From the NCBI GenBank assembly GCA_037443385.1, contig JBBIOL010000003.1, positions 2,542 through 66,541 of the forward strand: DNA of 64,000 nucleotides, written 5' to 3'. Both the position numbers and the translations under genes were made by a program. Within the stretch, counting starts at the first letter, position 1, and every line of letters starts with the position of its first letter. The stretch comes from Anaeromyxobacteraceae bacterium (GTDB lineage Bacteria > Myxococcota > Myxococcia > Myxococcales > Anaeromyxobacteraceae). Of this stretch, positions 34,567-54,592 are shown in pieces. The notes below the pieces were generated by a model. The model did not search any database. It saw nothing but the letters and a program-made list of their open reading frames with translations, and had not been told where the DNA came from.

Positions 34567-35532
34567 TCACCGTCCGTCGAGGTACTCGATCCGCGCCGCG
34601 GACCGGAGGTCGTCGACGAGGTCCCGGACGGCGGCCTCGCGCCTCTCCTGGAGGAGCCGGGCGCGGATCCCCGGGGCCACCCGTTCCTCGGGCATGGGCT
34701 CGCCGCCCCGCCGGGCCTCGACCCGGATCACGTGGAAGCCGAAGACCGTCTCGACCACCGGCGAGGTCCCGCCGTCCGCCAGCGCGAAGGCGGCGGCCTC
34801 GAACTCGGGGACCATCTTCCCGCGCGGGACCCAGCCCAGGTCGCCGCCGGAGGCGGCGCTCGCGTCCTGCGAGCGCCGGTGCGCCAGCCCGGCGAAGTCC
34901 GCGCCCGCGGCCGCGCGCCGCCGGATCTCCTCGGCCTCGGACCGGGCCCGGACCCGCTCCGGCTCCGGTGCGGTCGCCTCGGCCTTGCGGAGAACGTGGC
35001 GGACCCGGAGCTCGAGCGGGGTGGTGTACCGCTCCAGGTGGGCGAGGCGGTAGGCCTGCACGTCGGCGTCGTCCACCCGGACCGCGTCGAGCACCGGGGC
35101 GAGCAGGTTCTGGATGGAGGCCTGCCGCCGGGCCCAGTCGGGGAGCGTGGCCTCGGTGAGCCCGGCCCGCTCGAGCCTGCGGGCCAGCTCGCCCGGCGCG
35201 GCGTTCCGGGCGCGCAGCCCGGCGACGAGCGCGTCCACCTGGGCGGGGGTGGCCACCACCCCGCGGCGCACGGCCTCCTGCCAGAGCAGCTCGTCCTCCA
35301 CCAGCCGCTCGAGCGCCTCCCGCCGGTACTGCCGGTAGGCCTCCGGGTGGCGGATGCCCTGGGTGTTGCGCCCCTTCTGCACGAGGTAGTCCTCGAGGAA
35401 GCGGTCGGCGCGCTCGTTCGAGATGGCGGCGCCGTTCACGCGCACCGCGTCGCCGGCGTGCTGGGCCGGGACCGTGCAGGGGAGGGCGGCGAGCGCGAGC
35501 CCGGCGACCGCCGCCGAAAACCGCCGGATCAT
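34567..35532 (-). CDS. Exported parvulin-type peptidyl-prolyl cis-trans isomerase (PpiC/SurA-like); last gene of the MCO operon
   Basis: 321 aa from ATG 35532 (ATGA overlap with the upstream gene). It has the signal peptide MIRRFSAAVAGLALAAL and the parvulin motif GGDLGWVPRGKMVPEFEAAAF...FGFHVIRVE. Confidence 0.85.
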   Translation of the reverse strand: MIRRFSAAVAGLALAALPCTVPAQHAGDAVRVNGAAISNERADRFLEDYLVQKGRNTQGIRHPEAYRQYRREALERLVEDELLWQEAVRRGVVATPAQVDALVAGLRARNAAPGELARRLERAGLTEATLPDWARRQASIQNLLAPVLDAVRVDDADVQAYRLAHLERYTTPLELRVRHVLRKAEATAPEPERVRARSEAEEIRRRAAAGADFAGLAHRRSQDASAASGGDLGWVPRGKMVPEFEAAAFALADGGTSPVVETVFGFHVIRVEARRGGEPMPEERVAPGIRARLLQERREAAVRDLVDDLRSAARIEYLDGR

Positions 35533-37139
35533 TCGAGCGACCTCCAGGGCCCCACCGTGGCGAGCGAGCCCTTCGCCCCGTCCGGCTCCACGATCCAGCC
35601 GCCCAGCGCGCCGATGCGCCGGACCGGGCCGTAGGTGAGCGGGTGGGTGAGCCCGGTGGGGAAGTCGTAGAGCCCCTCCAGCGCGGCCACGAACCGCTCC
35701 CGGGAGAGCTGCCGCCCGCTGCGGCGCAGCCCCTCGACGAGCACGTCGAGGGCCACCAGCGCAGCCACCTGCGAGGTGCGGTTGCGGTCGGGGAGGCCCG
35801 CGGCCTCGCGGAGGCGGGAGAGCCCGGCCGCGCCCTCGGCGGACTCGTCGGCGGGCGAGCCGGGGAAGGCGAGCCGGATCCTCCCGCGGAACGCGGCCGG
35901 CGCCCGGGCCGCCGCGCGCGACGCCAGCGTCCCCGGGGCGAGGAGCCAGGGCGTGAAGCCGATCCCGGTCGCGGCGCGGGTGAAGGCCTCGAGCGCAGCG
36001 TCGCCACCCAGGAAGAGGACCGCGCGCACCCCCGTCGCCGCGAGGGCCCGGACCCGGTCGGCGTCGGGCACGGCGCCGGCCCAGGTGACCTCCCGGAGCG
36101 CCGCCCCGGCCTTGCCGAGCTCCTCGCGGGCCCCGGCGGCGGCGTCGGCGGCGCGGGGATCGTCGGGACGGACCACCGCGATCCGCGCCGGGTCGAGGGC
36201 GAGGTCGCGCACCGCGTGGGCGGCGAGGAGCCGGGCCTGCTCGCGCGGGCCCGACTGGAGGTGAAAGACCCACGGATTCGGCGGGTCCGCCTGCCGCGCG
36301 AGCAGCGTGAACGGGCCCACGACCGGGACCTTGCGCTCCTCGGCCGCCGTGGCGACGGCGTCCTCGGCGCCCGGGAAGAGGCCGGAGACGAGCGCGAAGA
36401 CCTCCCCGCCGGCGACGAGCCGCTCCGCCTCCGCCCGGCCGTCGCCCGCGTCGGAGTCGTAGCCCGCGACGACGAGCTCGAGCCTCCGGCCGTGGACGCC
36501 TCCCAGCCGGTTGCGCTCGTCGGCACGCGCGCGCAGGAGCCGGAGCATGCCCGCTCCGGTCTCGGCGAGGCGCCCCCGGTCGGGCAGGACCACCCCCAGG
36601 CGCACGGCCGCGGGCTCGATGCCGGGATCGAGGTCCCGGTCCACGACGCGCAGGTAGGCGAGGAGGCTCGCCAGGTCCGCGTCGGAGATGCGGTAGCGCG
36701 GCATGACCGGATCGAGCGGGTTCCCGGCGGGGTCGCGCCCCTCCCGGACGGCCCGTGCGAAGGTCCGCTCGTCGAAGGCCGGGTGGGACCGTCCGCCCGG
36801 GTGGGCGTGGCCGTAGGGCTTCGTGAGCGCGGTCCAGGTGACCTCGGTGGGGACCACGCCCCCCTCCGGACGCCCGAGCCCGTCGGCGCCGTGGCAGCTG
36901 CCGCAGGGAGCCGCCGATCCGGGGAGGACCGATCCCTCCCGGCCGATGCGCGCCTCGATCTCCCCGCCGGACGGGCTCTCGCCGGCGAGGAAGACCCGCT
37001 TGCCGTCCCGCTCCCGGGCCTCGAGCTCGAGGCCTGGCGCCGGTCGGGCGAGGGCGGCGAGGAGCAGCGCCGTGGCGAGCGCCACCCGGCGGGCGAAGGG
37101 CGGGCTCCGGCGGCACCGGGACCGATCTTCCGGGATCAT
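35529..37139 (-). CDS. Exported fusion of a mono-haem cytochrome c domain and a type-I periplasmic binding protein (Liv-like) domain
   Basis: 536 aa from ATG 37139. It has a signal peptide, CGSCHG (CxxCH; DNA 36891-36905) followed by MPRY, then about 380 aa with a Liv-type PBP pattern (RLGVVLP...VVAGYDS...VFALVSG...VPVVGP...). Confidence 0.75.
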   Translation of the reverse strand: MIPEDRSRCRRSPPFARRVALATALLLAALARPAPGLELEARERDGKRVFLAGESPSGGEIEARIGREGSVLPGSAAPCGSCHGADGLGRPEGGVVPTEVTWTALTKPYGHAHPGGRSHPAFDERTFARAVREGRDPAGNPLDPVMPRYRISDADLASLLAYLRVVDRDLDPGIEPAAVRLGVVLPDRGRLAETGAGMLRLLRARADERNRLGGVHGRRLELVVAGYDSDAGDGRAEAERLVAGGEVFALVSGLFPGAEDAVATAAEERKVPVVGPFTLLARQADPPNPWVFHLQSGPREQARLLAAHAVRDLALDPARIAVVRPDDPRAADAAAGAREELGKAGAALREVTWAGAVPDADRVRALAATGVRAVLFLGGDAALEAFTRAATGIGFTPWLLAPGTLASRAAARAPAAFRGRIRLAFPGSPADESAEGAAGLSRLREAAGLPDRNRTSQVAALVALDVLVEGLRRSGRQLSRERFVAALEGLYDFPTGLTHPLTYGPVRRIGALGGWIVEPDGAKGSLATVGPWRSLE

Positions 37140-37954
37140 CGACGCAGCGTAAGCGTTCGCGTGCCGGTCTGCACCGGTTGCGTCGGCGGGTGGCGGTCCA
37201 GGATCTCGCCCAGCACCCCACCGGCGCAGTCGAGGGCCTCGAGGGGCAGGTCGGACGACTGCCGGTAGCTGTAGCCCGAGCTGTCGAGCGTGATCGTGAA
37301 GTCGACGCTCCCGGTGGCGCCGATGCGGCTCAGGCACTGCCGGATCTCGGTGGAGGTCCGGAAGTCCTCCTCGACCGCGTCGAGGACCGACGCCGAGGAG
37401 GACGCACCGGCCGGGAGCAGGACCAGGAAGGCGGCCGTCGCGACGCCGTCCGGGTCCACCACGACGCGCTCGGCGATCGCCTTCACCCCCGGGTCGGTGG
37501 AGAGCTGCTCGTGCCAGGCGGAAGCCGGGGCCGGTCCGTCCACCCGGCAGAGCATGCCGGAGCAGGCCCCCCTCCAGGGCACGCTGCCGGCGGGCCAGAG
37601 CGCGGACAGCGCCGACGAGAGGCGGGAGAGGGCCGGCGGCGAGGGCGGGCTGCCGGCGCCGAACGCGTTCCGGAGCGAGAGGTAGCGACCGCGCCGCTCC
37701 TCGAGCTCGGAGAGGCGACGCTGCTCGGCCGGGTCGGAGACCTCGGTGGCGGTGCGCTCCCGGGCGCCGAGCGACCCGGGCGCGACGGCGGGAGCGGGCG
37801 CCGGAGCGGCGGTCTCCCCGCCTCCCGACCCGAACCAGGCCCAGGCGAGCACGAGCACGGCACCGAGCGCGGCGGCGACCCACCAGCCCCGGCGGGAGTG
37901 GCGCGATCCGGCCGGGTCAGTTCGCGGGGCGCGGGGTGGGGGCGCCTTCGCCAT
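37136..37954 (-). CDS. Hypothetical N-terminally anchored protein with four Cys in its exported domain
   Basis: 272 aa, overlapping both neighbours (38 nt and 4 nt). It has a basic N-terminus plus the TM segment WWVAAALGAVLVLAWAWF. No family is recognised. Confidence 0.55.
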   Translation of the reverse strand: MAKAPPPRAPRTDPAGSRHSRRGWWVAAALGAVLVLAWAWFGSGGGETAAPAPAPAVAPGSLGARERTATEVSDPAEQRRLSELEERRGRYLSLRNAFGAGSPPSPPALSRLSSALSALWPAGSVPWRGACSGMLCRVDGPAPASAWHEQLSTDPGVKAIAERVVVDPDGVATAAFLVLLPAGASSSASVLDAVEEDFRTSTEIRQCLSRIGATGSVDFTITLDSSGYSYRQSSDLPLEALDCAGGVLGEILDRHPPTQPVQTGTRTLTLRR

Positions 37955-38570
37955 GGCCCGGATCCTCGTCCGCGAGCCGCCGCAGCGTGTCGGCGATGGC
38001 GGCCGCCGGCATGTCGGGGCGGATCTTGGTCCAGTGGCCGGTGCGGACGTTGCCGGCCAGGAAGGCGGTGGTGTGGTCGCCCGGCTCCTCCGGCCACTCG
38101 CCGAGCCGCCTCGCCACGAAGGAGACGTTCTCCCTCTTCCCGCCCAGGAAGGACCAGTTCGAGTACACGGCCTCGTTCCGCCGCGCGAAGCGGGAGAGCT
38201 CGGCCGGCGTGTCGAAGTCCGGGTCCACCGACAGCGAGACGAGGCGGACCTCCCGGAAGCGGTCCCCGAGCGCGCGGCGCACTCCGTTCAGCTTCTGGCA
38301 GATGAGGGGGCAGGCGCTCTCGCAGCGGGTGAAGATGAAGCTCACGAGGACCACCTGGCCGTCGAGTACGTCGGAGAAGAAGCGCACGTTCTTCCCGTCC
38401 TGGTCCACGAGCACGGTGTCGGTGAACCAGTCGCGCGCCTTCTGGCGGCGCGCCTCCGGGCTCGCACGGGGCGACGGGCCGGCGGGCGGCGCCGGATCGG
38501 CGGCCCCGGCCGGGAGGGCGGCGGCCGCGGCAACCGCGGCGAGGAGGAGGGCGGGGATCCGGCGGCTCAC
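37917..38570 (-). CDS. SCO1/SenC-family copper chaperone (thioredoxin fold)
   Basis: 217 aa with a signal peptide, CxxxC in FIFTRCESACPLIC and a downstream conserved His (GDHTTAFL). Confidence 0.85.
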   Translation of the reverse strand: MSRRIPALLLAAVAAAAALPAGAADPAPPAGPSPRASPEARRQKARDWFTDTVLVDQDGKNVRFFSDVLDGQVVLVSFIFTRCESACPLICQKLNGVRRALGDRFREVRLVSLSVDPDFDTPAELSRFARRNEAVYSNWSFLGGKRENVSFVARRLGEWPEEPGDHTTAFLAGNVRTGHWTKIRPDMPAAAIADTLRRLADEDPGHGEGAPTPRPAN

Positions 38571-38571
38571 G

Positions 38572-39216
38572 TCACTGCACCCCGGCCGGGCCCGGGACGC
38601 GGGACGCGCCGATCGCGTCCACGCGGGCCAGGATGAGCTTCGCGTCGGGGAAGCCGTTGTAGCGGGTCCAGGTCCCCGTGCGCGCGTCCCCCACGAGCAC
38701 CATGGGCGGGTGATCGGTGAAGTTCGGCGTGTAGGCGCCCATGTCGCGCAGCACCCGCTCGACCACGTCCTTCGAGCCGGTGAGCCAGACCCAGCCCGGT
38801 CGCGCCTTCCAGCGCCTCGCGTAGGCCTTGAGCTTCGCCGGGGTGTCGCGGGCCGGGTCGAGCGTCACCGAGACCAGGAGCACGTCCTTGCCGAGGTGGT
38901 CGCCGAGCCGGTCCTGCATCCGGGAGAGGATCCCGGAGAGCACCGGGCACACCGTGGTGCAGGTGGTGAAGACGAAGTCGGCGATGACCGTCCGGTCTCC
39001 GGAGAGGAGCTCGCGCAGCCGGACCGGCCGGCCGTCCTGGTCCACGAGCTCGACGTCGGGCACGGTGACGCGGGCCTCGGCCACCGGGGGCGCCTTCTCA
39101 GCCCGGGTCACCTCGGCGGGGTGGCAGGGCGGCGCGGCGTCCTCGGCGGCGCCGGCCTGCGGGAGGGCGAGGAGCGCGGCGGCGACGAGCGCGGCGCGGG
39201 TTCGGGAACGGTTCAT
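38572..39216 (-). CDS. SCO1/SenC-family copper chaperone, second paralog
   Basis: 214 aa from ATG 39216, with a signal peptide, CxxxC in FVFTTCTTVCPVL and a conserved His (FTDHPPMVLV). Confidence 0.85.
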   Translation of the reverse strand: MNRSRTRAALVAAALLALPQAGAAEDAAPPCHPAEVTRAEKAPPVAEARVTVPDVELVDQDGRPVRLRELLSGDRTVIADFVFTTCTTVCPVLSGILSRMQDRLGDHLGKDVLLVSVTLDPARDTPAKLKAYARRWKARPGWVWLTGSKDVVERVLRDMGAYTPNFTDHPPMVLVGDARTGTWTRYNGFPDAKLILARVDAIGASRVPGPAGVQ

Positions 39217-41153
39217 GGAGCTCTCCCCGGGGGGGCCTCGACCACGACCCCCCGGTAGGGCACGTCGTTGCTCTTCACCTGGAGCGAAGGAACGGCGGCG
39301 AAGAAGTACCAGGCCCCGGCGCGGTCCACGAGCGCCTCGGCCTCGTAGACGCCTCCCCCGGCGCCGCGGGCCACCACCTCGTGGCGCGGTCCGCCGGGCA
39401 CCGCGTGGTAGAGCAGGGTGAGGTCGGCGACGCCGTCGCGCGGCTCGCGGGTGGCGGCGTCGGCGATGCGGAGCCGGATCGGGACCTTCGCGCCCACCGG
39501 GGCGCGGGACGGCACGTCGACGAACTCGACCAGCACGCCGCCCCGCTCCCTGCGCAGGGCCGCGTCGGGCAGGACCTCCGTGCCGAAGCAGTGCAGCACG
39601 CGCGGGTTGTCGAGCAGGAAGGCCACGTCGTAGCGCCCGGCGACCGGGAGGCGCACCTTGCCGGCGTAGACCCCCGGCTCGACCTCCGTCAGGCTCCGGT
39701 CCACCACCGTGGCCGCGAGCACGCGGTGCCCGTACCCGCCGTAGCTGCCCATGGGGGCGTTCATGCCCTCCATGTAGAAGTAGGTGTTCCCGTCGGCGGG
39801 GCTGGCCACGAAGACCGCGGCCTCGGTGGAGGCCTGGGCCACGGCGTCGGCCAGGGCCAGCTCGCCCGCGTCCTGCGGCGCGCCGGTCCCGGCGCCGAAC
39901 CCCTGGACGATGGGCTTCCTGCCCGCGCCCAGGCTCCCCAGGTTCACCATCTTCACCTGCGGGGAGTCGAGGAGCCGGACGTAGGCGAAGGCGCGGGTCA
40001 TCCCCACCTGGTAGGGCTTGCCCTCGAGCGGGATGGTGTGGACGGGCTGGTTGTCGGAGGCGTCGACGACGAGCACGGAACGCTCCGACGGGTTCACGAC
40101 GAAGGCGAACCGCCCGTCCTGGGTGAAGCGCAGCGGCCCCAGCCCGGGCTTCCCCTGGACGCGGGCCGTGACCTCCAGCCGGACCGGGTCCAGGACCGAG
40201 ACCGTGCCCGCCTTCCCGTCGGCCACGTAGACCGACTGGGAGAGGGAGGAGGTGGCGACGGCGATGGGGAGCGGCCCGGTCGGGAGGTCGGCGAGCTTGC
40301 GCAGCGTGGCCACGTCCACGACCGAGACCGTGCCCTCGTCCCGGTTGGTGACGAAGGCCCGGGCGCCGTCGGCGGAGAAGGCGATCTCGTGATGGCCGCG
40401 GCCGGTGACGACGAAGGCCACCTTTCCGCGGGTGGCGGTGTCGATCACGGTGACGCCGCTCCGGGCCGCGTCGGAGGCGTCGTTCGCCACCCACAGGTAC
40501 CGGCCGTCGGGCTGGATGGCGAGCCGCAGCGGGTCGGACCCCGCCGGCACCGACGCCGCGAGCCGGAAGGTCCCGGTGTCCACCACCGCCACCTCGCCGG
40601 CGCGGGGGAGGGAGACGTAGAGGAAGCGCCCGTCGGGGCTGCGGGTCCAGTCGCCGCCCGGGCGCTTCAGGACCACGCTGGCGAGCAGGCTGGTGTTGCC
40701 GGTCATGCTCACCACCGGGTCGATCACCGACAGGCTCGCGTCCCGGTTCAGGAGCACGAGGTAGTAGCTGTTCAGGTCGACGAGCGGACGGATGCCCACG
40801 CTGCCCTGGAGGTAGAGCGCCACCTTGTCCTTGCAGGCCCGTTCCTGCCCGGGCTTGCCGGCCACCACCGCGGCCATGTCCATCCAGGCGGCCGGCTTGG
40901 CGCCGGGAACGGGGCGGCCGCTCGCGACGTCGGTCATGCGGAAGCGGACCTCGGCGATCTCCCCCTCCCGGACCGGTCCGGGCTCGCCGGCCCGGACCAG
41001 CGAGAAGTCGATGGCCACGCCGTCGCGGACCACGCGCCGGTCCGGGTCCGGAGCCGCGGCGGGCTCGGACGCGGAGGCGGTGACGGCGGCGAGCAACGCC
41101 ACCGCCACCGCGACCGCCCCCGTCCCCACCCCCCCGCAGATGCCACGCGCCAC
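39213..41153 (-). CDS. Exported YVTN-type beta-propeller protein flanked by Ig-like (FixH/YtkA-like) domains
   Basis: 646 aa from GTG 41153 (GGGGAGG 8 nt upstream). It has a signal peptide and repeated blades such as PDGRFLYVSLPRAGEVAVVD, PDGRYLWVAND, ADGARAFVTNRDEGTVSVVD and QDGRFAFVVNPSERSVLVVD. The domain calls for the termini are tentative. Confidence 0.75.
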   Translation of the reverse strand: MARGICGGVGTGAVAVAVALLAAVTASASEPAAAPDPDRRVVRDGVAIDFSLVRAGEPGPVREGEIAEVRFRMTDVASGRPVPGAKPAAWMDMAAVVAGKPGQERACKDKVALYLQGSVGIRPLVDLNSYYLVLLNRDASLSVIDPVVSMTGNTSLLASVVLKRPGGDWTRSPDGRFLYVSLPRAGEVAVVDTGTFRLAASVPAGSDPLRLAIQPDGRYLWVANDASDAARSGVTVIDTATRGKVAFVVTGRGHHEIAFSADGARAFVTNRDEGTVSVVDVATLRKLADLPTGPLPIAVATSSLSQSVYVADGKAGTVSVLDPVRLEVTARVQGKPGLGPLRFTQDGRFAFVVNPSERSVLVVDASDNQPVHTIPLEGKPYQVGMTRAFAYVRLLDSPQVKMVNLGSLGAGRKPIVQGFGAGTGAPQDAGELALADAVAQASTEAAVFVASPADGNTYFYMEGMNAPMGSYGGYGHRVLAATVVDRSLTEVEPGVYAGKVRLPVAGRYDVAFLLDNPRVLHCFGTEVLPDAALRRERGGVLVEFVDVPSRAPVGAKVPIRLRIADAATREPRDGVADLTLLYHAVPGGPRHEVVARGAGGGVYEAEALVDRAGAWYFFAAVPSLQVKSNDVPYRGVVVEAPPGRAP

Positions 41154-41179
41154 GTCGTTCGCCTCCCCGGAACGCACCG

Positions 41180-44100
41180 CTACGGCGTCGCCCGGAGGAT
41201 ACCCCAGACCCCGGCCAGCCCCCCGAAGCCCGACCGGTCCATGAGCAGGTAGTCGCCGGTGATCGCGTTCGACCCGCCCACCCGCGGCAGCCGCAGCGTG
41301 AAGTGGGACGCCGGCTGGATCTGGTCCTGGGCCCCCATGGCGATGCTCGGGCCGTAGTCCCCGATCATCCGCGAGGCGACCTCCAGCGGGCCGATCCCGG
41401 TCGTGCTGGGATCGCCGGGGGTCGCTCCGGGGACGACCGCCGTTCCGGAGATGGTCGGGTAGAAGCCGGTGGGGTTGCAGTTGCCCGGGATGCCCATGTA
41501 GGACGAGTTGCACACGTAGGGCGACCGCTGCCAGACGTGGCCGTGGAGCGTGATCACGCTGGCCCGGTTGGCGCCGGTGGGCTCGAGGAGGTGGATGCGG
41601 GCCTCGGTCCCGGCCCTGGCGGTGAAGATGGGCGCGGACGGCTCGCCGCCCACGAGCGCGTTCGAGTAGGCGTCGCCCGCGTTCGACACCGTGCGGAAGC
41701 TGTTCGGCCCGGTGAAGGGCGTGTTGGGCGGCAGCCCGAAGCGGAACCAGAGCGGGTCGGTGCGGTAGTTGAGCGCCATCTCGCCCGAGTCCTCCGCGTC
41801 CTCGGCCACCGAGAACTCGGCCGCGATCTGCTCGACCGGCTCGCCGTCGCCGTAGCGGTGGGCCATGCCCTTCTGGATCACCGCCACGAAGTCGCGGATC
41901 GTCCCGTTCACCGTGGCCGAGACGCGCGTCTCGCGGCAGGCCGGGTTCGCGGCGGCGGTCTTCGGGGTGACGGCGGTGCAGTTCGCCACCACGCGGGCCT
42001 GGTTGTCCTGGACGTAGTCGGTCTCGGTCCAGGTGGAGCCCCGGGGAAGGACGACCAGCGCCCCTCCCGCGCCCTTCTGTCCGTGCTTGATGGGGTCGGC
42101 GGGCATGAGGTTCGTGCCGCCGTACTCGACCGGGGTCGCCACCAGGTTGAACGACGTGCCGGTGGCGGGGGACAGGCTGACGTCCCCGGCGTACCAGCGG
42201 TAGTTCACCGTCGCGCCCGGTGCGGCGATGTTGGCGTTCGGGTTCGAGCCCACCACCACGCCGGTGTCCTGCCGGACGTTGTGCGAGACGAGCGCCGGCC
42301 GGATGCCCACGTACGAGGACGGGCGCACGTTGTTGTTGTTGAAGGTGGTGAGGTCGCCGGTGCCGGTGGTGGTCGAGGGCACCGCTCCGCCGTCGCGGGT
42401 GATGGACGGCGGGAGGTGCTTCCAGCTCGGCAGATCGGGCATGGCGGCGGGCAGCTTGTTGCGCAGCTTCACCACCACGCAGTCGCCGGCCGCGGCGCGG
42501 AGCACGATCGGCTCCACCGGGGCCTGCGGGCGCAGCTTCACCGGGCAGGTGTAGTTCGTGGGCGTGAGCTTCCCGCTCGTGAGGCAGCGGGCGTCGGTGG
42601 CGCTCCGGGCCACGAGGTCGGCGGTCTTCACGTACAGGATGGCCGTCGGGTCGTGGAGCACGCCGCCCAGGTGGGCCGCCTGCGCGAAGGTCCCGCCGCC
42701 GTCGAGCACCTTGTTGAGCGCCGCGACGTTCGTGGCGCGCGGGTTGTAGACCAGCGTCCCGCCGGTCGAGACCAGCGGTCCGCCCGCGTGTTCCTTGGCG
42801 AGGTCGGGGTCGGCGGGGACGATGGTGGCGGCCACGGCGTTGTCGAGCACGTCGTTCGCGAGCACGGCGGTGAGGTCGTAGTTGCGGACCGGGGCCGTGG
42901 ACGGGCAGATGCCGGTGAACGCCTTGGTGTTGGCGAGCGAGATGGGCACGGTGGTGTTGGGCAGCTTGAAGAGGTCGGTCTGGGCGGAGTTGTAGGTGCG
43001 GAGCAGGCCCCAGGCGCCGTTCCAGTAGCCGTCCATCGAGGTGTTGATGGAGTACAGGTAGTCCGCCGTGGTGGCGGCGCCGAGCACCGGGAGGGCCGGG
43101 GTCGCGAAGGCGAACTGCTCGGAGATGCCGGCGTGCTGCGCGTTGCGCCAGCCGGAGTTGGGCGAGAACCCGTAGCCCGATCCTCCCTGCAGCCACTTCA
43201 TGCCGCCGATGCTGACGGTGTGCGACTCCTCGTCGCCGCCGGCCTGGATGCGCATGCGGATCCGGTCGCCGTAGTAGGCGCGCATCATGGGGGTGAACGG
43301 GTCGCCGGCCCTGAGGGCGGTGGGCTGGTTCAGCGGGGGCGGGAAGCGGGTCCCGTTGATCACGGTCTTGGCGTTGGGCTGCACGTTCAGGGCGGCGATG
43401 GCGCGATCGGTGCGGCTGTCGAACGCGAAGGCCAGGTCGCCGGCCAGGCCGGCGGTCTGGGCGCCCGGGCGGCCGTCGGGGCCGACGGCGGCCGGGTTGT
43501 AGACGCGGTAGCCGATGGGCTCGTTGCGGTAGTTCACCACGAAGAAGCCCGGGTCGTCGGCCGAGATGGCCTCCGGGCAGGGGCGGGGCACGCCGCCGAA
43601 GCAGCCCTGGGCGATGACGATGGTGTCGGGGAAGGCGCCCTGCTTGCCGAACCGGCCGGTGGCCTGCTCCTTCGTCGAGGCGTTCACCGCCAGGCGGAAG
43701 GTGTCGGTGGTGGGATCCTGCCCGCGCTCGCCGTCCTGGCCACGGCCGACGTAGACGCCCGGCTTGTAGGCGTGCTGGAAGTCCGTGTACTCGAAGTAGA
43801 ACTCGCGGTAGCTGTCGTTCTTGCCGTCGCCGTCGACGTCGCCGGTGAGGATGGCCGCCTGCCAGCTGGTCGGGCCGCCATCCTGCCGGCCGCCGTCGCC
43901 CACGCGGGTGCGGTCGCCGAGCTGGAGCCCGGTCTCGTTGTGCGCCCACTGGGAGTTGGGCGGCTCCACCAGGACGGTGGCGTACAGGCCGATCTGCTGG
44001 TGCGTGGACGGGCCGAAGTGGTCATGGGTGAAGATGGTGCCGAGGCCGCGGTGCACGCCGGCCACGTTCACCACCGGGTCGGAGAACCAGCGCTCCAGCG

Positions 44101-47100
44101 TGGTCCGGGCGCCCTTCCAGGCCGGCGCCCCGTCCGCGGACCAGATCTTGGCGGGCTGCAGCGGCCCGAAGTACGGGTGGTCCTCGGCCTGCAGGGGGGC
44201 GTTGAGGGCGTTGCCCTTGCTGTTCGCCGGGTTGCCCGCGCCGGTGGGGTTGAAGGCGTTGATGGCGCGGATGCGCTCGCGCACCGCGTCGGGGGAGAGC
44301 GTGCCGTCCTCGTAGTTCCAGCCATTGGCCGACCCGTCGGTGGTGGTGAGGTCCCACTTGGGCAGGTGGATGTGCTGGCCGATGATGTCGGTGGTGGTGC
44401 GGATCTGGTAGTCGTCGAGCTCGTACACCGACGGCACCAGGTTCGTGTGCTGGTACATCACGCAGTCGAAGGTGTTCATCCGCATCACGAACGGCTCGGG
44501 CGGCTTCTTCTTGGTGATGACCGGGAGCGCGTCCCCCCAGAGCACGCCGATGCGCTCCTGCGGGTAGTGGAACCCGAGCTTGTTGAGCACCGCGTCGAAC
44601 TGGATGTTGGCGCCCTTGTAGATGCGCGGGCTGTCGGCGTGGAAGGCGGAGGTGCCGGTGGTCGAGGTGCCGCCGCGGCCGTCGAAGAAGTTCCCGCCGG
44701 CGCTGCGGAAGACCTTTCCGGTGTCGTCGATGCAGGGCTCGTGGAACGGGGCCCCCGCGACGGGGCGCCCGGAGCCGTTGGTGACGAAGCCCGCCTGCCG
44801 GACCGACCGGTCGAGGCCGAGCGCGAAAGTGGGGTGGGTGCGCACCGAGTGGAAGGCCATGGCCGACTGCTCCACGTCGGTCCCGGTCTCCGGGTACCAG
44901 ACCGCCTTCGCCTTCTTGAGCTCCTTCGTCATGTCGAGCCGCGACTCGACGCTGTGCGCGCAGGCGGCGCGCGCCTGGGCGGGGGACTGGCCCTGCGTCG
45001 GCGTGCAGCCCGAGGCGGCGAAGCCGTCGAGGGCGTGGCGCGGGAGGCCGCCGTCGAAGCCGCCGGCGCGGGTGTCCATGTCGAGCGGGGGAGACGGCAT
45101 GCGCTGCCCGACGGTGTCCTCCAGGCCGGCGAGCCAGAAGGGGAAGCCGGGGTTCTTCACCGGCTTGAAGCCCGGGGTGTAGGAGCCCGGCGGGGCGCTC
45201 GCCACCGCCGAGACGATCCCGGGGTCGGTCTCGGGCGTACGGGCCACGCGGGCCACGCTGCCGAGCACGGTCGCGCCGTCCGGGGCCAGCTTGGGAACCA
45301 CCGCGACCGAGCCGGGCATGGGGGCCATGGGCTTGCCGGGCAGCGGCACGAGCGCCGGGATGGGGGTTCCGACCGCGATCTCGCCGTCGGGCAGGGAGCG
45401 GGCGCGGGCGTTCGTGAGGCCCGCCACGGTCACCGGCGCCGGGGTGCCGTCCTGCAGCGCCCAGGGCGAGGCGTGGAAGCCGCCCTTGCTCACCGCGAGC
45501 GGCGTGCCCAGCTCCATCACGTCGTGGTTGCGCCAGAGCTCCCACATGCCCTGGGCGAAGTGCGGGTAGAAGTGGCAGTGGAAGATGGCGTCGCCGGCGC
45601 TCTTGTTGCGGTTGCCGGACCCGCCGAAGTTGATCTCGTAGGTGTAGCCGGCGCCGGGGCCGATGCCCTGGGCGTCGAGGTAGTTGGAGTTGTCGTCGTT
45701 GGGGTTGAAGAGCCACTGGTGGTTGTGCAGGTGGAAGATGTGGTGCTCCTTCCCCGTGTGCACGTTGCGGAACTTGACGTGGTCGCCGATGTAGCTGTGG
45801 TGCACGTTGGACGGGTCGTCGGGATAGAAGGCCCGGGTGGCCTTGGGACCCACCGCCGTGCACGGACCCACCGTGAAGCCGGGAGGCGCGCAGGCCTCGA
45901 GACCGGTGGTGGCGGGCACGTCCACCACCATGGCCGGGTCGCCCACCGCCGGGGAGGTGAGGAAGAACTCCTCGTAGGCGCAGTCCAGGCAGTCGTGCAT
46001 GGGGCCCACGCCGAGCCGGTTGGCGATCACCTCGGGGCCGATGGCGCCCGAGCCGTAGTTCACCTGGAACACGTCGCCCACGGCGTGCAGCGTGTGGGCG
46101 AGCGGGTTCTGGACGCCGTTGATGAGCCTCGCGAACCAGAGCGGGAAGGCGTTGGCGACCGCCATCTCGTCGTGGAACACCACCGTGTACTCGCGGAAGG
46201 GCTCGAGCCGGTTGGGCAGCGTGGGGTTGGTGTAGCCGAGCGACTCGAGCGGGTAGGTGGAGGGCGGGAAGTTCCCGTCGGGAGAGCCGGGGGGCCCGGC
46301 GATGATGGCGTTCAGGTCGGAGTGCGCCAGGGTCGCCCCGTCGAGCATGTTGAGCACCGGCGCGCCGGCCTTGCCCTCGCGGACCCAGACGCTCGGGCTC
46401 GTGACGGTCACGACCGCCCCGGTGGCGTCCAGGGCCTGGACCGTGGTGCCCGAGGGCCAGGCCTGTGCGAGGACCCGGGGAACGGTGACGGGCGCGCCCA
46501 GGTCGGTGGTGGCGGTGATGGTGGCTCCGGCGAGCCAGCTCCGCGTGGTGCCGGTCGCGAGCAGGAACCCGTTCGGGGTCGCGGGGTCGAGGGTGTAGGC
46601 GAGCGTCTCGGTGGCCGTTCCGTCGGAGAGGGTGAGGAATCCGGCGCCGGCGAAGGGCGCCGACTGGCGGGTGGGATCGGTGGCGGTGACGAGGGCGGTC
46701 GCGCCGGCGGCGACGTCGGCCGAGGCGGCGATGGTCGGCGTGCCGGTGCCGGTCAGGGTGAATCCGGTCGCGGTCGCCGTGTAGGAGAAGGTCTCGGCGG
46801 TTCCGGCGCCGGCCGGGACGATCTTCAGGGTGCCCGTGGCTGCGAAGGGCGGCGTGAGCGTGGTCGGATCGCTCGCCGTGGCGAGGATGGCGGTCCCGGC
46901 CGCGGCGGCGGCGCTCGTGGTGGTGGCGACGGGGGTCGAGGTGGTGGCCGGGTAGCGGGCCTCGTAGTCCAGGATGGGGTGGCCGCTGCAGGTGTAGCCG
47001 GGGGTGCCCGGGCAGGAGGCGGCGTTGCCCACGTCCACGGCGAGGCGCAGCTCCTCCTCGGTGACCTGGCTGCGGTAGAAGCGGGCGCCGGGCGGCTCCA

Positions 47101-47779
47101 CGTTCACCACCGCGAACATGCCGTTGGCGCTGTTGCCGGCCGCGCCGTCGGAGCCGAACACGGCGCCGTGGCTGGTGACGAGGAAGGTGCCCTCCTTGGG
47201 CGCGTAGTACTGGTAGGTGGTGCTCGCCCCCGGGCCCACGAGGCCCGACGACGTGGCGGCGCCGACGAGCGACCCGTCGTCCTTCATGGAGGTGAGGAGC
47301 TCGAGCCCCTGGGCGTGGAACGAGGCACGCCGATCCACCACCTGGTTGTCGACGAGCAGGTTCGGGTGGGGGGCGTTGGCCGGGTTGGCGCCGGGGGCGA
47401 GGAGGTTCTGGAAGGCCACCTCCAGGCAGTCGCCGGCCGCCACGCGCAGGACGAGCGGGCGCGGGCGCTTGTCCGGGCGGAGCGTCACCGCTCCGGCGGC
47501 GCAGGCGGTCCCGCACGCCTGCTGCGTGGTGCGCGAGACCACGTCGCGCCGCAGCGCGTACATGATCCCGTTCACGTTCTGCGACCCGAGGCGGTTGAAC
47601 ATGATGGGCTGGTCGAAGACCACCACGTCGGCCTTGACGGTCCGCGTGCAGGTGACCTGCGCGCCGGCGTCGAGGGGGGCCAGGAGCGCGATCCCGGCCG
47701 CTCCGATGACCACCAGTGAAAGGCGCGCGTTCCGTCCGGCGCCGCCTGCCCGCTTCCGCATCGCGTTGTCGCCCTGCAT
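41180..47779 (-). CDS. Giant (2,199-aa) exported multicopper-oxidase-like protein
   Basis: ATG 47779 has GGAGG 7 nt upstream, and the product has a Sec-type signal peptide. Copper-ligand motifs are HHIFHLHNH (45719-45745), HCHFYPHFAQGM (45545-45580), HIH (44366-44374), THDHFGPSTH (44000-44029) and LHGH (41537-41548). Confidence 0.85.
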   Translation of the reverse strand: MQGDNAMRKRAGGAGRNARLSLVVIGAAGIALLAPLDAGAQVTCTRTVKADVVVFDQPIMFNRLGSQNVNGIMYALRRDVVSRTTQQACGTACAAGAVTLRPDKRPRPLVLRVAAGDCLEVAFQNLLAPGANPANAPHPNLLVDNQVVDRRASFHAQGLELLTSMKDDGSLVGAATSSGLVGPGASTTYQYYAPKEGTFLVTSHGAVFGSDGAAGNSANGMFAVVNVEPPGARFYRSQVTEEELRLAVDVGNAASCPGTPGYTCSGHPILDYEARYPATTSTPVATTTSAAAAAGTAILATASDPTTLTPPFAATGTLKIVPAGAGTAETFSYTATATGFTLTGTGTPTIAASADVAAGATALVTATDPTRQSAPFAGAGFLTLSDGTATETLAYTLDPATPNGFLLATGTTRSWLAGATITATTDLGAPVTVPRVLAQAWPSGTTVQALDATGAVVTVTSPSVWVREGKAGAPVLNMLDGATLAHSDLNAIIAGPPGSPDGNFPPSTYPLESLGYTNPTLPNRLEPFREYTVVFHDEMAVANAFPLWFARLINGVQNPLAHTLHAVGDVFQVNYGSGAIGPEVIANRLGVGPMHDCLDCAYEEFFLTSPAVGDPAMVVDVPATTGLEACAPPGFTVGPCTAVGPKATRAFYPDDPSNVHHSYIGDHVKFRNVHTGKEHHIFHLHNHQWLFNPNDDNSNYLDAQGIGPGAGYTYEINFGGSGNRNKSAGDAIFHCHFYPHFAQGMWELWRNHDVMELGTPLAVSKGGFHASPWALQDGTPAPVTVAGLTNARARSLPDGEIAVGTPIPALVPLPGKPMAPMPGSVAVVPKLAPDGATVLGSVARVARTPETDPGIVSAVASAPPGSYTPGFKPVKNPGFPFWLAGLEDTVGQRMPSPPLDMDTRAGGFDGGLPRHALDGFAASGCTPTQGQSPAQARAACAHSVESRLDMTKELKKAKAVWYPETGTDVEQSAMAFHSVRTHPTFALGLDRSVRQAGFVTNGSGRPVAGAPFHEPCIDDTGKVFRSAGGNFFDGRGGTSTTGTSAFHADSPRIYKGANIQFDAVLNKLGFHYPQERIGVLWGDALPVITKKKPPEPFVMRMNTFDCVMYQHTNLVPSVYELDDYQIRTTTDIIGQHIHLPKWDLTTTDGSANGWNYEDGTLSPDAVRERIRAINAFNPTGAGNPANSKGNALNAPLQAEDHPYFGPLQPAKIWSADGAPAWKGARTTLERWFSDPVVNVAGVHRGLGTIFTHDHFGPSTHQQIGLYATVLVEPPNSQWAHNETGLQLGDRTRVGDGGRQDGGPTSWQAAILTGDVDGDGKNDSYREFYFEYTDFQHAYKPGVYVGRGQDGERGQDPTTDTFRLAVNASTKEQATGRFGKQGAFPDTIVIAQGCFGGVPRPCPEAISADDPGFFVVNYRNEPIGYRVYNPAAVGPDGRPGAQTAGLAGDLAFAFDSRTDRAIAALNVQPNAKTVINGTRFPPPLNQPTALRAGDPFTPMMRAYYGDRIRMRIQAGGDEESHTVSIGGMKWLQGGSGYGFSPNSGWRNAQHAGISEQFAFATPALPVLGAATTADYLYSINTSMDGYWNGAWGLLRTYNSAQTDLFKLPNTTVPISLANTKAFTGICPSTAPVRNYDLTAVLANDVLDNAVAATIVPADPDLAKEHAGGPLVSTGGTLVYNPRATNVAALNKVLDGGGTFAQAAHLGGVLHDPTAILYVKTADLVARSATDARCLTSGKLTPTNYTCPVKLRPQAPVEPIVLRAAAGDCVVVKLRNKLPAAMPDLPSWKHLPPSITRDGGAVPSTTTGTGDLTTFNNNNVRPSSYVGIRPALVSHNVRQDTGVVVGSNPNANIAAPGATVNYRWYAGDVSLSPATGTSFNLVATPVEYGGTNLMPADPIKHGQKGAGGALVVLPRGSTWTETDYVQDNQARVVANCTAVTPKTAAANPACRETRVSATVNGTIRDFVAVIQKGMAHRYGDGEPVEQIAAEFSVAEDAEDSGEMALNYRTDPLWFRFGLPPNTPFTGPNSFRTVSNAGDAYSNALVGGEPSAPIFTARAGTEARIHLLEPTGANRASVITLHGHVWQRSPYVCNSSYMGIPGNCNPTGFYPTISGTAVVPGATPGDPSTTGIGPLEVASRMIGDYGPSIAMGAQDQIQPASHFTLRLPRVGGSNAITGDYLLMDRSGFGGLAGVWGILRATP
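46558..46890 (-). repeat. In-frame tandem duplication (about 65-aa period) of a Thr/Ala-rich segment inside the MCO gene
   Basis: The copies are ILATASDPTTLTPPFAATGTL...GTAETFSYT...GFTL (about 46754-46890) and LVTATDPTRQSAPFAGAGFL...GTATETLAYT...GFLL (about 46558-46693). Confidence 0.6.
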
Positions 47780-48256
47780 GAGACCTCCGACTCCGGCCCT
47801 TCCGGGCCATCTGCGCGTCCCCGGTGCCCCGGTGCCCTGCTTGCGACCGCCGGCCCGCCCGCGAAAAGAAAACTGGACCGCGTCGCTCCACTTCGTCCCG
47901 GGAACGACTGGTACTCGCTTCGATCTGGGACCGCCCGTCCCTTCATCGAGTGACACTCGCGTGACCCAACTTCTTGGAATCACGAAAGTAAACGTGAATC
48001 GGAATTTTAGGGCTCGACCGAGCAAGCGCGGGTGGATCCCCTCAACCGCGCCCGGTTCCACCGGAAAGGAAAAGTTGACCCTGATCAATGATTAGAGGAG
48101 ATCAAGAAACCAGGGGCGCCCCGCCACGTTCACCATGAGTAAATGCGGCACCCGACGTCCCAGATGGGTGGTGGGTGGAAGAGTACCGGGGTCGCGGGAC
48201 GGGACGGGCCATCGCGGAGCGCGATCCCGTCCGTCCTGGGCTAGCTTCGTGCTGCG
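47780..48256. promoter_or_regulatory. 477-bp divergent intergenic control region with a markedly lower-GC core (about 47860-48130)
   Basis: I found no credible ORF here. It contains A/T runs (GAAAAGAAAACTGG, GAAAGTAAACGTGAATCGGAATTTTAG, GGAAAGGAAAAGTTGACC). It also has repeated GATCAA motifs and a tandem CCGGTGCC CCGGTGCC at 47821-47836. Confidence 0.6.
48196..48236 (+). promoter_or_regulatory. Long imperfect GC-rich hairpin (about 17 bp in three helices) 20 nt upstream of the LssY-like gene
   Basis: GGGACGGGACGGGCCATCGCG-GAG-CGCGATCCCGTCCGTCC. The ATCGCG/CGCGAT core is perfect and the outer arms pair with two small bulges. Confidence 0.45.
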
Positions 48257-51961: not shown

Positions 51962-54592
51962 TCAGGGCTTGAAGCTCGTCACCCCCGACGTCGCCGACCC
52001 GCCCAGGCTGGACGTCACCGTGACCTGGAACGGAGCCGGCACGCCCACCAGCACCGCCGTGTAGTTGCCCTTGCCGAGGTTGGTCATCACCACCGGCGCC
52101 AGGTTGGGGACGGTGAGCGTGAGCACCGCCGCTCCGGAGGTGACGGACGAGCTCGCGTTCACCGTGAGCCGCTGCTTGGAGGTGCGGTACTCGACGAGCG
52201 TGAGGGTGACGAGGTCCGGACCGGCCTGGACCGTGACCGTGACCTGGGAGGGCGTCGAGGCGATGAGCCCGTTCGAGACGGTGAGCGCGAGCACCACCGT
52301 GGCGACGCCCGTGCCCGGGCCCACGTTGGGTGCGGTGAAGGTCGGGTGCGCCGTGGTCGCGCCGGAGAGGGTCACCTTGGGTCCGGACACCTGCGTCCAC
52401 GCGTAGGTGATGGGGAGCGCCTGGGGATCGAAGCTGGCCGAGCCGTCCAGGGTCACCGCCCCGCCGCTGCGCACGGCCTGGGCTGGCCCCGCCATCGCGG
52501 TCGGGGCGCCGGCGGCGGCCACGTTCACGGTCGCGAGCGCCGAGGAGCGGAGGCCCGCCGCGTTCGTGACCTGCAGCGAGAAGGCGAGCGACTGCGGGCT
52601 GGTCGCGGCGGGCGAGATGAACACCGGTCGGGAGGTGGTGGCGCCGGTGAGCGACACCGGCGGGCCGGAGGACTGGCTCCAGAAGTAGGTGAGGGCGAGC
52701 GGCGGCGAGTTCGGGTCCACCGAGGCCGATCCGTCGAGCGTGACCCGCGCGTTCGCTCCCACCGACTGGGGCAGGCCGGCGTCGGCCACCGGCGCGGAAG
52801 GGGCCGGTGGCGCCGGGTTCACCGTGACCGCGACCGTGGACGCGGTGGAGACCGCGAAGGCGTCCCGGACGGTGAGTGAGAAGACCAGCGTCGCGGGCGA
52901 CGCACCGGACGGGACGAGCGGCGCCGTGAACGATGGCCGGGCCACCGAGGCGCTGGAGAGGGTCACGCCGGTCCCGCTCGACTGCTGCCAGGCGTAGGTG
53001 AGCGACTGGCCGTTCGGGTCGGTGGAGAGGCTCCCGTCGAGCGTGACGAGCGCGCCGGAGGGGACGGTCTGGGGAAGGCCGGCGTTCGCGGTGGGTGGCA
53101 CGGGCGCGGCGCCGGAGCAGGAGGGCGCAGTCGGGACCGGGCTGCCCGGCCAGGGCGAGAGCTGGCCCACGATCCCGCCGGGGATGGGGCTGGGCCCGCC
53201 GCCCGCCCACGGGCCGGAGCCGTTCGCCAGGAAGGGGAACTCCTGGAAGTTGAGCGGCACGGGCGGACTGCCGGCGGCCAGGTTCTCCGGGAAGAGGTAC
53301 TCGGTGATGGGCGCGCGGTACTGGCCGGCGAGGAGCCCGTTCGCGGTGGTGACGGGCTGCGCCCCCACGATGCGGGCGCGCAGCTCGCGGGTGGCGGGCA
53401 GGAAGACGCCCACGGGTGGCATGGAGAGGACCTTGGTGGGCGGCCGGAAGCGCCAGCGCCCGAGCACGGCGCCCACCGGCGGTCCGGGGTCGACCGCCAC
53501 CGATCCCCACGAGCGCTCCGTCTGCGCGCCGGTGCAGGGATCCACGTCGATGCCGTAGAGATCCACGTTCCGCGTGGGGTCGGTGGTGAACCCCTCGAAG
53601 CGGGTGCGGACCGTGGCCTCCTGCGGCACGCCGGCGATGGGCGCGCCGCCCACGCCCAGGATGGTGACCTCGATGGCGATGTAGGCCGGGTCGGTGCCGT
53701 ACGCGGTGAAGATGCCCAGGTTGGCGACCAGGGAGTAGGCGGCCACGTAGGACGAGGCGACCGCGCCGGACGGCCCCGCGGTGGGAGACGCTCCGTCCTT
53801 CACCAGGATCCCGGAGTAGGTGACGAAGTCGCCGACCTCGACGGGCGCCGCGCGCCGGGCGTCGGGGAGCACGCCCAGCGCGGGGTCGGGCGTGTGGAAG
53901 ATGGACTGGTACGCCCCGGTGACCGGGTCACGCGGGCGGTTGCCCTGCGGGCAGAGGGCGTCGTCCAGGGCGGCCGGATCGGTGCGCGGCACGCAGAGCG
54001 GGTAGCCGGTCGTCGCGCGGACGGTGGGATTCTCCTCGTCGACGGTGAACCGGACGTCGGGGCTCGTGACCCGGCCGAACCGGCCGAGGGGATCGTTGAG
54101 CCGCACGCGCTGGCCGGTTCCCGGGTCGCCGATGACGCCCCCCACCCGGAGCTCGCCGGTGGCGTAGTCGATGAAGTTCACGAAGCCCTGGCCGGCGTTG
54201 AGCTCGTCCTGCGCGATCGAGACCAGGCCGGCGACGTACTGGTCGCCCACCCGGTTGCCGATCACGTGGACCTGCCAGGTGGTCGTGGGCGCGGGCAGGT
54301 CGGCCTGGGCCATCCCGGTCTGTCCCGGACCGTACGGCGGCGGGGCGAGCGCGAAGAGCTCCTGCCAGGTGAGCGCGGTGGCCGGCATGAGCACGATGGT
54401 GTTCCGCGGGACGGTGACGACCTGCCCGTGGACGGTGAGCGTGCCCCCGGCGAGCGAGTCGGTCCCGGAGAGGGTCGCCGCCTGGAGGATCCCGATCATG
54501 TCGAACGGCGAGACCGGCTCGGGCGGCGGGAGCGCCGGGGCGGGCGCCGCCGGGAGCGCGAGGGCGAGCAGGAGGACCATGCGTGCGTTCAT
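51962..54592 (-). CDS. Secreted 876-aa protein: unknown roughly 500-aa N-terminal domain + three PKD-like repeats + C-terminal Ig-like tail
   Basis: ATG 54592 with the signal peptide MNARMVLLLALALPAAPAPA. It is paralogous to the partial gene at 62567-64000 (shared segments TRN..LYG.D.DP.TG, GRWRFRPP, EY.FPEN, EYRT.KQRL.VNASSSVTS). Confidence 0.75.
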   Translation of the reverse strand: MNARMVLLLALALPAAPAPALPPPEPVSPFDMIGILQAATLSGTDSLAGGTLTVHGQVVTVPRNTIVLMPATALTWQELFALAPPPYGPGQTGMAQADLPAPTTTWQVHVIGNRVGDQYVAGLVSIAQDELNAGQGFVNFIDYATGELRVGGVIGDPGTGQRVRLNDPLGRFGRVTSPDVRFTVDEENPTVRATTGYPLCVPRTDPAALDDALCPQGNRPRDPVTGAYQSIFHTPDPALGVLPDARRAAPVEVGDFVTYSGILVKDGASPTAGPSGAVASSYVAAYSLVANLGIFTAYGTDPAYIAIEVTILGVGGAPIAGVPQEATVRTRFEGFTTDPTRNVDLYGIDVDPCTGAQTERSWGSVAVDPGPPVGAVLGRWRFRPPTKVLSMPPVGVFLPATRELRARIVGAQPVTTANGLLAGQYRAPITEYLFPENLAAGSPPVPLNFQEFPFLANGSGPWAGGGPSPIPGGIVGQLSPWPGSPVPTAPSCSGAAPVPPTANAGLPQTVPSGALVTLDGSLSTDPNGQSLTYAWQQSSGTGVTLSSASVARPSFTAPLVPSGASPATLVFSLTVRDAFAVSTASTVAVTVNPAPPAPSAPVADAGLPQSVGANARVTLDGSASVDPNSPPLALTYFWSQSSGPPVSLTGATTSRPVFISPAATSPQSLAFSLQVTNAAGLRSSALATVNVAAAGAPTAMAGPAQAVRSGGAVTLDGSASFDPQALPITYAWTQVSGPKVTLSGATTAHPTFTAPNVGPGTGVATVVLALTVSNGLIASTPSQVTVTVQAGPDLVTLTLVEYRTSKQRLTVNASSSVTSGAAVLTLTVPNLAPVVMTNLGKGNYTAVLVGVPAPFQVTVTSSLGGSATSGVTSFKP
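52217..53098 (-). repeat. Three tandem PKD-like coding repeats (96-102 aa each)
   Basis: The repeated pattern is AxAG.PQ.V..G..VTLDGS.S.DP....L.Y.W.Q.SGP.V.L....T..P.F.AP. Confidence 0.7.

Follow-up and report, generated by a model that had tools for sequence, protein, structure and literature searches.

A seven-gene locus around a large multicopper oxidase

We analysed a 64,000-nucleotide (nt) stretch of DNA from an Anaeromyxobacteraceae bacterium (contig JBBIOL010000003.1), hereafter called the window, in which seven genes on the minus strand (g1 to g7) fill positions 34567-47779 (Table 1). The first gene, g1, encodes a very large multicopper oxidase (MCO), and the set as a whole is likely, judging from the protein families and their order, to be the orthologue of the mnxG operon of Pseudomonas putida GB-1. 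The window has ~74% G+C, because of which every frame carries long open reading frames (ORFs), and the raw ORF lists are full of spurious ones. We chose the gene frames using plots of the G+C content of each frame at third codon positions (GC3). Between 34.6 and 47.8 kb, one minus-strand frame has a GC3 of ~0.95-1.0 and a low G+C content at second positions throughout, and the frame switches exactly at the gene boundaries. These frames, and the six junctions as read from the sequence, agree with an initial annotation of the locus made from the letters alone. An identical public contig has independent gene calls with the same products for g1 and g2, and the short gap between g3 and g4 and the overlap of g4 with g5 are also present in the gene calls of two related contigs (L081 and L082).

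The products of all seven genes are predicted to be exported or membrane-anchored, as had been claimed: each begins with a basic stretch, after which a hydrophobic 12-mer (Kyte-Doolittle ≥2.1) falls inside the first 40 residues. Profile searches also recovered the domains initially proposed, namely Cu-oxidase_3 in g1, a YVTN propeller in g2, SCO1-SenC in both g3 and g4, Cytochrom_C with Peripla_BP_6 in g6, and Rotamase in g7, with g5 lacking any match. The overlapping or near-abutting stop and start codons suggest that the genes are translationally coupled. A sequence scan found no promoter-like sites inside the cluster, and terminator-like sites occur there at chance level. The lack of internal promoter-like sites is consistent with a single transcript, without proving it.

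One line of evidence on the nature of the system comes from g1. This protein matches the NCBIfam model NF041487 ‘manganese-oxidizing multicopper oxidase MnxG’ (copper_ox_MnxG) with 2,169.8 bits (E=0), the model positions 239-1893 (of 1,894) being aligned to residues 463-2197. The only Pfam match is a fragment of Cu-oxidase_3 (29.1 bits, for a cut-off of 21). We found 491 homologues (E≤1e-10, among the candidates scored). The closest, including Anaeromyxobacteraceae proteins from metagenomes, are 76-83% identical to g1, and the homologue of Anaeromyxobacter oryzae, named only ‘cupredoxin domain-containing protein’, is 64% identical. Homologues from Myxococcota, Geobacteraceae, Methylococcaceae, and Acidobacteriota follow (51-58%), and then the proteins from Pseudomonas and Zestomonas to which NCBI gives the name MnxG (49%; in the case of P0116, over 1,815 alignment columns). 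The named MnxG proteins are collinear with g1 end to end, apart from one insertion. In an alignment of 12 sequences of the family, the first 277 residues of g1 are conserved family-wide, and the insertion that follows them is shared only with P0003 and P0006. The proteins of A. oryzae, Pseudomonas, Geobacteraceae, and the other homologues lack it, and BLASTP revealed no significant internal repeat in it. Based on these comparisons, g1 belongs to the Pseudomonas-type MnxG family.

All four copper motifs (HxH, HxH, HxxHxH, and HCHxxxHxxxxM) are invariant in the same alignment. The protein is also collinear with the solved MnxG of Bacillus (PDB 9bxa_A, E=3.6e-61). The HxxHxH and HCH motifs of g1 align with those of the Bacillus enzyme and with the C-terminal copper site of two-domain laccases, and its HIH and HDH motifs align with the HIH and HDH of 9bxa_A. 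The leader of g1 is of the Sec type rather than twin-arginine, and for this reason the protein probably folds and gains its copper in the periplasm.

A second line of evidence is the conservation of gene order. We scanned one genome per species of GTDB and found at least 586 stretches encoding a relative of g1. We fetched 79 of these loci (labelled L) and searched them by tblastn with the seven window proteins; 66 loci, with at least 6.5 kb downstream of the oxidase, were informative. The oxidase is followed by g2-g3-g4-g6-g7 in 55 of them and by the same genes with a trailing g5 in three others, which brings the core order to 58 out of 66 loci, across Gamma- and Betaproteobacteria and Myxococcota. 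One locus, of A. oryzae, has the order g2-g3-g4-g5-g6, and the rest are truncated variants. The propeller gene g2 lies directly 3’ of the oxidase in 62 loci, and g7 is the final gene in 55. The taxa concerned include Pseudomonas, Oceanisphaera, Motiliproteus, Ramlibacter, Piscinibacter, Rubrivivax, Hyphomonas, and Myxococcota. This supports the idea that the cluster is conserved as a unit. The gene g5 is confined to Anaeromyxobacter-type operons.

Closer relatives share more than the core. The contig L082, from an Anaeromyxobacteraceae metagenome-assembled genome (MAG), has the seven genes in identical order, keeps the 38-nt overlap, and matches the window in its downstream genes (radical SAM, DUF6982, rhomboid, and thiolase). 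L081 has the upstream LssY_C gene and the gene order of the window until the contig ends just inside g5. The shared order and flanks indicate that the locus is a stable chromosomal feature of the clade and not a recent mosaic. The nearest cultured relative, A. oryzae Red232 (L002, NZ_AP025591.1, 10001-21508), encodes g1-g2-g3-g4-g5-g6.

Some of the loci have tandem copies of the mnxG-type oxidase: two in L007 (4375-9342 and 10676-15661), two in L071 (10835-16162 and 17510-22894), and three in L032 from Pseudomonas jinjuensis (10001 to 26979). The accessory genes of L071 are reordered downstream, the propeller gene coming first, then the SurA gene, and last the two SCO genes. We also found a full MnxG-type operon (g1, g2, g3, g4, g6, g7) in the Mn-oxidising Rubrivivax sp. 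A210 (L070, NZ_CAJGBN010000003.1, 10001-22682). The paper describing this genome reports as single MCO candidate a MofA-like oxidase in a five-gene operon, which may or may not be the same locus (PMC8218464).

Table 1. Features of the operon and of its upstream region, in window coordinates (aa, amino acids).
Feature	Position	Strand	Size	Description
g1	41180..47779	-	2,199 aa	Putative Mn(II) oxidase: predicted exported MCO, Pseudomonas-type MnxG family
g1 insertion	46397..46945	-	~185 aa	Residues ~279-461; Thr/Ala/Gly-rich, between the first cupredoxin-like region and the remainder
g1 copper-ligand motifs	45545..45742	-		H680-x-x-H683-x-H685 and H734-C735-H736-x3-H740-x4-M745; predicted type 1 copper and part of the trinuclear cluster
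g1 copper-ligand motifs	44018..44374	-		H1136-I-H1138 and H1252-D-H1254; predicted rest of the trinuclear cluster
g2	39213..41153	-	646 aa	GTG start; predicted exported YVTN beta-propeller of seven blades, with beta-sandwich (YtkA/FixH-like) domains on either side
g3	38572..39216	-	214 aa	Putative exported SCO1/SenC copper chaperone; C86-x3-C90, H169; Pfam SCO1-SenC 7e-19
g4	37917..38570	-	217 aa	GTG start; second putative exported SCO1/SenC copper chaperone; C83-x3-C87, H166; Pfam SCO1-SenC 3e-16
g5	37136..37954	-	272 aa	Lineage-specific periplasmic protein, predicted N-terminal membrane anchor; four invariant Cys (131, 136, 207, 243)
g6	35529..37139	-	536 aa	Predicted exported fusion of a mono-haem cytochrome c domain (C79-x-x-C82-H83, M146) and a periplasmic binding-protein domain of type I; MofC-like
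g7	34567..35532	-	321 aa	Predicted exported SurA-N and parvulin-type peptidyl-prolyl isomerase/chaperone; final gene of the operon
Junction g1 to g2		-		26-nt gap, GGGGAGG inside; read from the sequence
Junction g2 to g3		-		ATGA overlap; read from the sequence
Junction g3 to g4		-		1-nt gap; read from the sequence
Junction g4 to g5		-		38-nt overlap; read from the sequence
Junction g5 to g6		-		ATGA overlap; read from the sequence
Junction g6 to g7		-		ATGA overlap; read from the sequence
Region between g1 and the LssY_C gene	47780..48244		465 nt	Presumably operon promoter and 5’ leader
GGAGG	47784-47788			Read from the sequence
Hairpin GGCCC-GGAA-GGGCC	47795-47808			Perfect; just upstream of the g1 ribosome-binding site
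Island CGTTTACTTTC	47984-47994			~205 nt upstream of the g1 start

The accessory genes and the surroundings of the operon

The products of g3 and g4 both match Pfam PF02630, with a thioredoxin-like domain, and have the CxxxC and distal His that serve as Cu ligands in SCO proteins. These triads are at least 90% conserved in 66 orthologues of g3 and 64 of g4. The haem motif CxxCH of g6 and its downstream Met are conserved to the same extent (61 orthologues). With a c-type haem motif and a periplasmic binding domain, and encoded beside a large MCO, g6 corresponds by its domain description to the proteins called MofC-like.

The last gene, g7, matches Rotamase (2.5e-23) and SurA_N_3. In many Pseudomonas loci (e.g., L019, L026, and L033) the tblastn match often covers the SurA-N part only (query residues ~29-165), and the parvulin domain is not among the columns that are ≥90% conserved. 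Some members of this family may have a degenerate peptidyl-prolyl isomerase (PPIase) domain or lack it. In the A. oryzae locus, neither tblastn at E≤10 nor the GC3-filtered ORF list revealed a SurA/parvulin gene after g6, and the PPIase is thus either dispensable at this locus or encoded elsewhere.

Pfam and NCBIfam matches in g2 correspond to a propeller of the YVTN/cytochrome-D1 type and a C-terminal YtkA/FixH-like domain. In the AlphaFold2 model (predicted local distance difference test, pLDDT, of 84.6), the seven-bladed propeller is preceded by one beta-sandwich domain and followed by two more. The best Foldseek match is an archaeal protein with a YVTN propeller and a PKD domain (1l0q, E=4e-23). 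Matches to N2O reductase, to the beta subunit of hydrazine synthase, and to cytochrome cd1 reflect, as far as the model goes, the generic layout of propeller and sandwich domains. We considered g2 as a copper enzyme similar to N2O reductase and rejected it: the TM-score with this enzyme is only ~0.4, and the family keeps just two His in the propeller. The columns of g2 that are at least 90% conserved among 71 orthologues (C107, H254-H255-E256, M464, and H521-C522) suggest a role in metal handling.

The remaining gene, g5, is the sole gene of the window operon without a counterpart in the Pseudomonas operon. Its short cytoplasmic tail leads into a single transmembrane helix, and a low-complexity linker then connects to a periplasmic region of ~200 residues with helical and alpha/beta parts. 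It has no sequence match in Pfam, NCBIfam, or PDB. A word-index search gave 17 homologues, those with a named host all being Anaeromyxobacteraceae, and an exhaustive profile search gave 54 representatives among 1.84 billion proteins. The AlphaFold2 model has a pLDDT of 81 (>90 over most of residues 80-270), and Foldseek found nothing in PDB at E≤1e-3. The top match is weak (TonB C-terminal domain 6sly, E=0.036, TM-score of 0.56 for the target and 0.25 for the query), and there is no match to Pfam TonB_C. In the model, two neighbouring strands of a hairpin carry C131 and C136, and two helices carry C207 and C243. The simplest reading of this arrangement is that the four cysteines would form two structural disulfides. 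No haem, CxxC, or other redox motif was found in the sequence.

We ran a hidden Markov model (HMM) of the g5 family against the six-frame ORFs of all fetched loci. Among these, it matched only the window and four loci that are Anaeromyxobacter-type or labelled ‘Deltaproteobacteria’ (L002, L004, L005, and L006). The homologue of A. oryzae lies between the second SCO gene and the cytochrome fusion, and that of L082 also occupies the position seen in the window. In three MAGs it comes after the SurA gene (L004, ~21170-21748; L005, 17887-18672; L006, ~21927-22553). The gene has changed its place in the operon without being separated from it, and this linkage is solid. Two further leads were discarded. 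A protein joining g5 to SCO1 (P0161) might have served as Rosetta-stone evidence, but its sequence is an Arg/Pro-rich out-of-frame translation, and it is probably a frameshift artefact across the g4/g5 overlap. The similarity of g5 to domains fused to extracytoplasmic function (ECF) sigma factors (P0179 and P0189) is too weak to be used (E of ~1e-4 to 1e-3 over ~100 residues).

The operon is bounded upstream by a divergent gene of the LssY_C family, followed by an aminotransferase, and downstream by a convergent radical-SAM gene whose stop codon is 18 nt from that of g7. The hairpin and the CGTTTACTTTC island of the leader are kept in L081, a relative with 83% identity whose leader has otherwise diverged, and they may be regulatory or leader elements. 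Within positions 47780-48244 we found no sigma-70-like site. The 465-nt leader matches no Rfam family, be it of Mn riboswitches or any other (a single sub-threshold chance match, E=0.66, 16 bits). The remaining ORFs of the window that were screened against Pfam encode ordinary metabolism. Among them, an ORF for a PKD-domain protein (51962-55336, minus strand) and one for a di-haem cytochrome c peroxidase (CCP_MauG, 54690-57194, plus strand) overlap by ~650 nt. Both are drawn from stop to stop, so that one of the starts certainly makes its gene shorter than drawn, and neither appears linked to the operon.

Function of the operon and alternative explanations

Six of the seven genes correspond, in order, to the published operon of P. 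putida GB-1, and we therefore regard the locus as an mnxG-type operon rather than as a new system. Under this interpretation, g1 would be a Sec-exported MCO of the six-cupredoxin type drawing single electrons from a metal, most likely Mn(II), the substrate suggested by orthology to the GB-1 enzyme. The electrons would enter at the type 1 copper (His, Cys735, His740, and Met745) and pass to the trinuclear copper cluster, where O2 would be reduced to water, leaving Mn(III/IV) oxides outside the cytoplasm. The initial annotation had proposed that the genes encode an exported, copper-dependent, metal-oxidising MCO along with copper chaperones, a folding catalyst, and a haem protein, a description that homology and motifs support.

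The co-translated partners are most likely the periplasmic maturation crew of g1. The products of g3 and g4 would bind Cu through their CxxxC and His and load the apo-oxidase, while the SurA/parvulin protein would chaperone the folding of the very large polypeptide. The presence of two Cu chaperones and of a folding chaperone makes sense given the probable maturation of g1 in the periplasm. The propeller g2, with its Ig-like domains, could be a scaffold or a metal-handling partner, and g5 a clade-specific accessory anchored in the inner membrane. The cytochrome fusion g6 might supply or remove electrons, for example keeping chaperones and copper reduced, or sense a ligand. Since g1 has a complete set of ligands for O2-reducing copper centres, it requires no external electron acceptor. 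It follows that g6 is more likely a factor of maturation, redox poising, or sensing than an obligatory electron outlet. The sequences themselves show the homology, the copper motifs, the gene order, the tight junctions, and the conserved chaperone and haem motifs, whereas the substrate, the way electrons flow through g6, and what g2 and g5 do are inferred. That the operon encodes a haem protein fits the requirement of c-type cytochrome maturation genes for Mn oxidation in P. putida (cited in PMC13631088).

Several observations weigh against this interpretation or limit its reach. The score of g1 is below the equivalog cut-off of NF041487 (3,100 bits), which makes it a homologue that could not be automatically named MnxG, and an identity of 49% leaves the transfer of the substrate uncertain. 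Regulation also seems to differ from that of Pseudomonas, where an MnxR-dependent sigma-54 promoter was inferred upstream. We found no -24/-12 sigma-54 promoter within two mismatches in positions 47780-48244 (window-wide matches being below chance), and saw no regulator of the MnxS/MnxR type among the window ORFs in a non-exhaustive Pfam screen. Finally, the genus Anaeromyxobacter is known to reduce metals, and we found no published report that it oxidises Mn(II); the mnxG literature that we surveyed reports no tested function for any of the accessory genes.

Some of these points would also be explained if the same machinery had another substrate, such as Fe(II), Cu(I), or humic and phenolic compounds, or if it served in attachment to metal oxides or in their reduction, as proposed for OmpB, an outer-surface MCO of Geobacter. 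The host lineage is known for the reduction of Fe(III) and Mn(IV), no publication that we found ties Anaeromyxobacter to Mn oxidation, and the score of g1 does not reach that of an MnxG equivalog. In addition, Fe(II) oxidisers and Geobacter have clusters of the MofA/OmpB type that include MofC-like and SCO1 genes (PMC5566968). However, the closest relative characterised genetically is a Mn(II) oxidase, the operon is orthologous gene by gene, and the literature treats OmpB/MofA as an MCO family distinct from that of the P. putida enzyme (PpMnxG). We thus find a different substrate unlikely.

A second alternative is that metal oxidation conserves energy, the electrons leaving the MCO through g6, and perhaps g5, towards the respiratory chain instead of all reaching O2. 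Such a respiratory coupling is discussed in the literature (PMC13631088) and would account for a conserved haem c protein in nearly every operon. Yet, all four motifs of the O2-reducing copper centres are invariant, which makes an external acceptor unnecessary. Moreover, g5 is missing from most operons and has no redox motif that could carry electrons. This makes energy conservation through the operon quite improbable. The third alternative, the initial proposal of an undescribed seven-component periplasmic oxidising system, is very hard to sustain: the exact set with g5, itself from a very small unannotated family, was not found in the literature surveyed, but g1 is in the MnxG family, the set of the other six genes is already described in the same order (PMC11409713, PMC8218464), leaving only g5 outside the description, and at least 586 stretches in GTDB species representatives encode a relative of the oxidase.

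With the mnxG-type operon as our preferred interpretation, what is new at this locus is the unannotated, clade-specific g5, the insertion in g1, and the lineage; the kind of system is already known. A stronger proposal is that within the Anaeromyxobacteraceae, a family known to reduce Mn(IV) and Fe(III), one clade carries a working Mn(II) oxidase system, in which g5 is a new component that tethers the machinery for MnxG maturation or electron transfer to the inner membrane, or regulates it. This is possible, if doubtful. If true, a single organism could drive the manganese cycle in both directions across oxic-anoxic boundaries. Bacterial manganese oxides control the cycling of trace metals and carbon, and the Pseudomonas MnxG operon is among the few routes to them that are defined genetically. 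The locus is a complete mnxG-type operon maintained vertically in a lineage studied for metal reduction, and it provides comparative material on the accessory genes g2, g3, g4, g6, and g7.

Comparison with known manganese oxidation systems

In P. putida GB-1, the genes listed for the putative mnxG operon (PMC11409713, Table 4 and Fig. 3) code for MnxG, a protein with 40-residue YVTN beta-propeller repeats, two SCO1/SenC proteins, an ABC substrate-binding protein that includes a cytochrome c domain, and a protein with a SurA domain. The same operon was drawn for GB-1 and strain OF001 (PMC8218464, Fig. 2c). These are the families of the window genes g1-g2-g3-g4-g6-g7, in the same order. Identities with a P. 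putida locus (L011) are 50% for the oxidase, 46% for g2, 45% for g3, 43% for g4, 38% for g6, and 36% for g7, and the copper, SCO, and haem motifs are shared. The window differs by the presence of g5 between the second SCO gene and the cytochrome fusion, by the ~185-aa insertion in the oxidase, by its host phylum (Myxococcota), and by an oxidase scoring under the equivalog threshold. GB-1 is reported to have two Mn(II) oxidases of the MCO type, MnxG and McoA, either of which is enough for oxidation, an assignment that rests on knockouts (PMC11409713, PMC13631088). Homologues of PpMnxG in Deltaproteobacteria had already been noted bioinformatically, in work that treats MofA/OmpB as a separate MCO family (bioRxiv 10.1101/2022.11.10.515945).

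The MnxG of the Bacillus sp. Mnx complex is another point of comparison. With 1,227 aa against the 2,199 of g1, it is a homologous and collinear multi-cupredoxin MCO in which the four copper motifs align, whereas in g1 large insertions part the conserved blocks. Bacillus MnxG acts with the small subunits MnxE and MnxF on the spore surface. The accessory genes of the window are not known from this system.

Leptothrix discophora mofABC and the OmpB-MofA clusters follow the same logic as the window, with a large exported MCO, a PPIase, and a protein combining a cytochrome c domain with a periplasmic binding domain. The initial annotation had drawn this parallel with mofABC, and it agrees with the literature: MofC-like proteins have precisely these two domains, and genes for SCO1-type chaperones often adjoin the MofA/OmpB oxidases (PMC5566968). 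The systems differ in the PPIase, MofB being described as of the Mip (macrophage infectivity potentiator) type (PMC8218464), whereas g7 is of the SurA/parvulin type, and no YVTN propeller is described for mofABC. The oxidases also appear distinct, since g1 matches the MnxG model, the MofA family being set apart by its description in the literature. The mofABC genes form a parallel system whose oxidase comes from another MCO family, and the mnxG operon of Pseudomonas is the closer match to the locus of the window.

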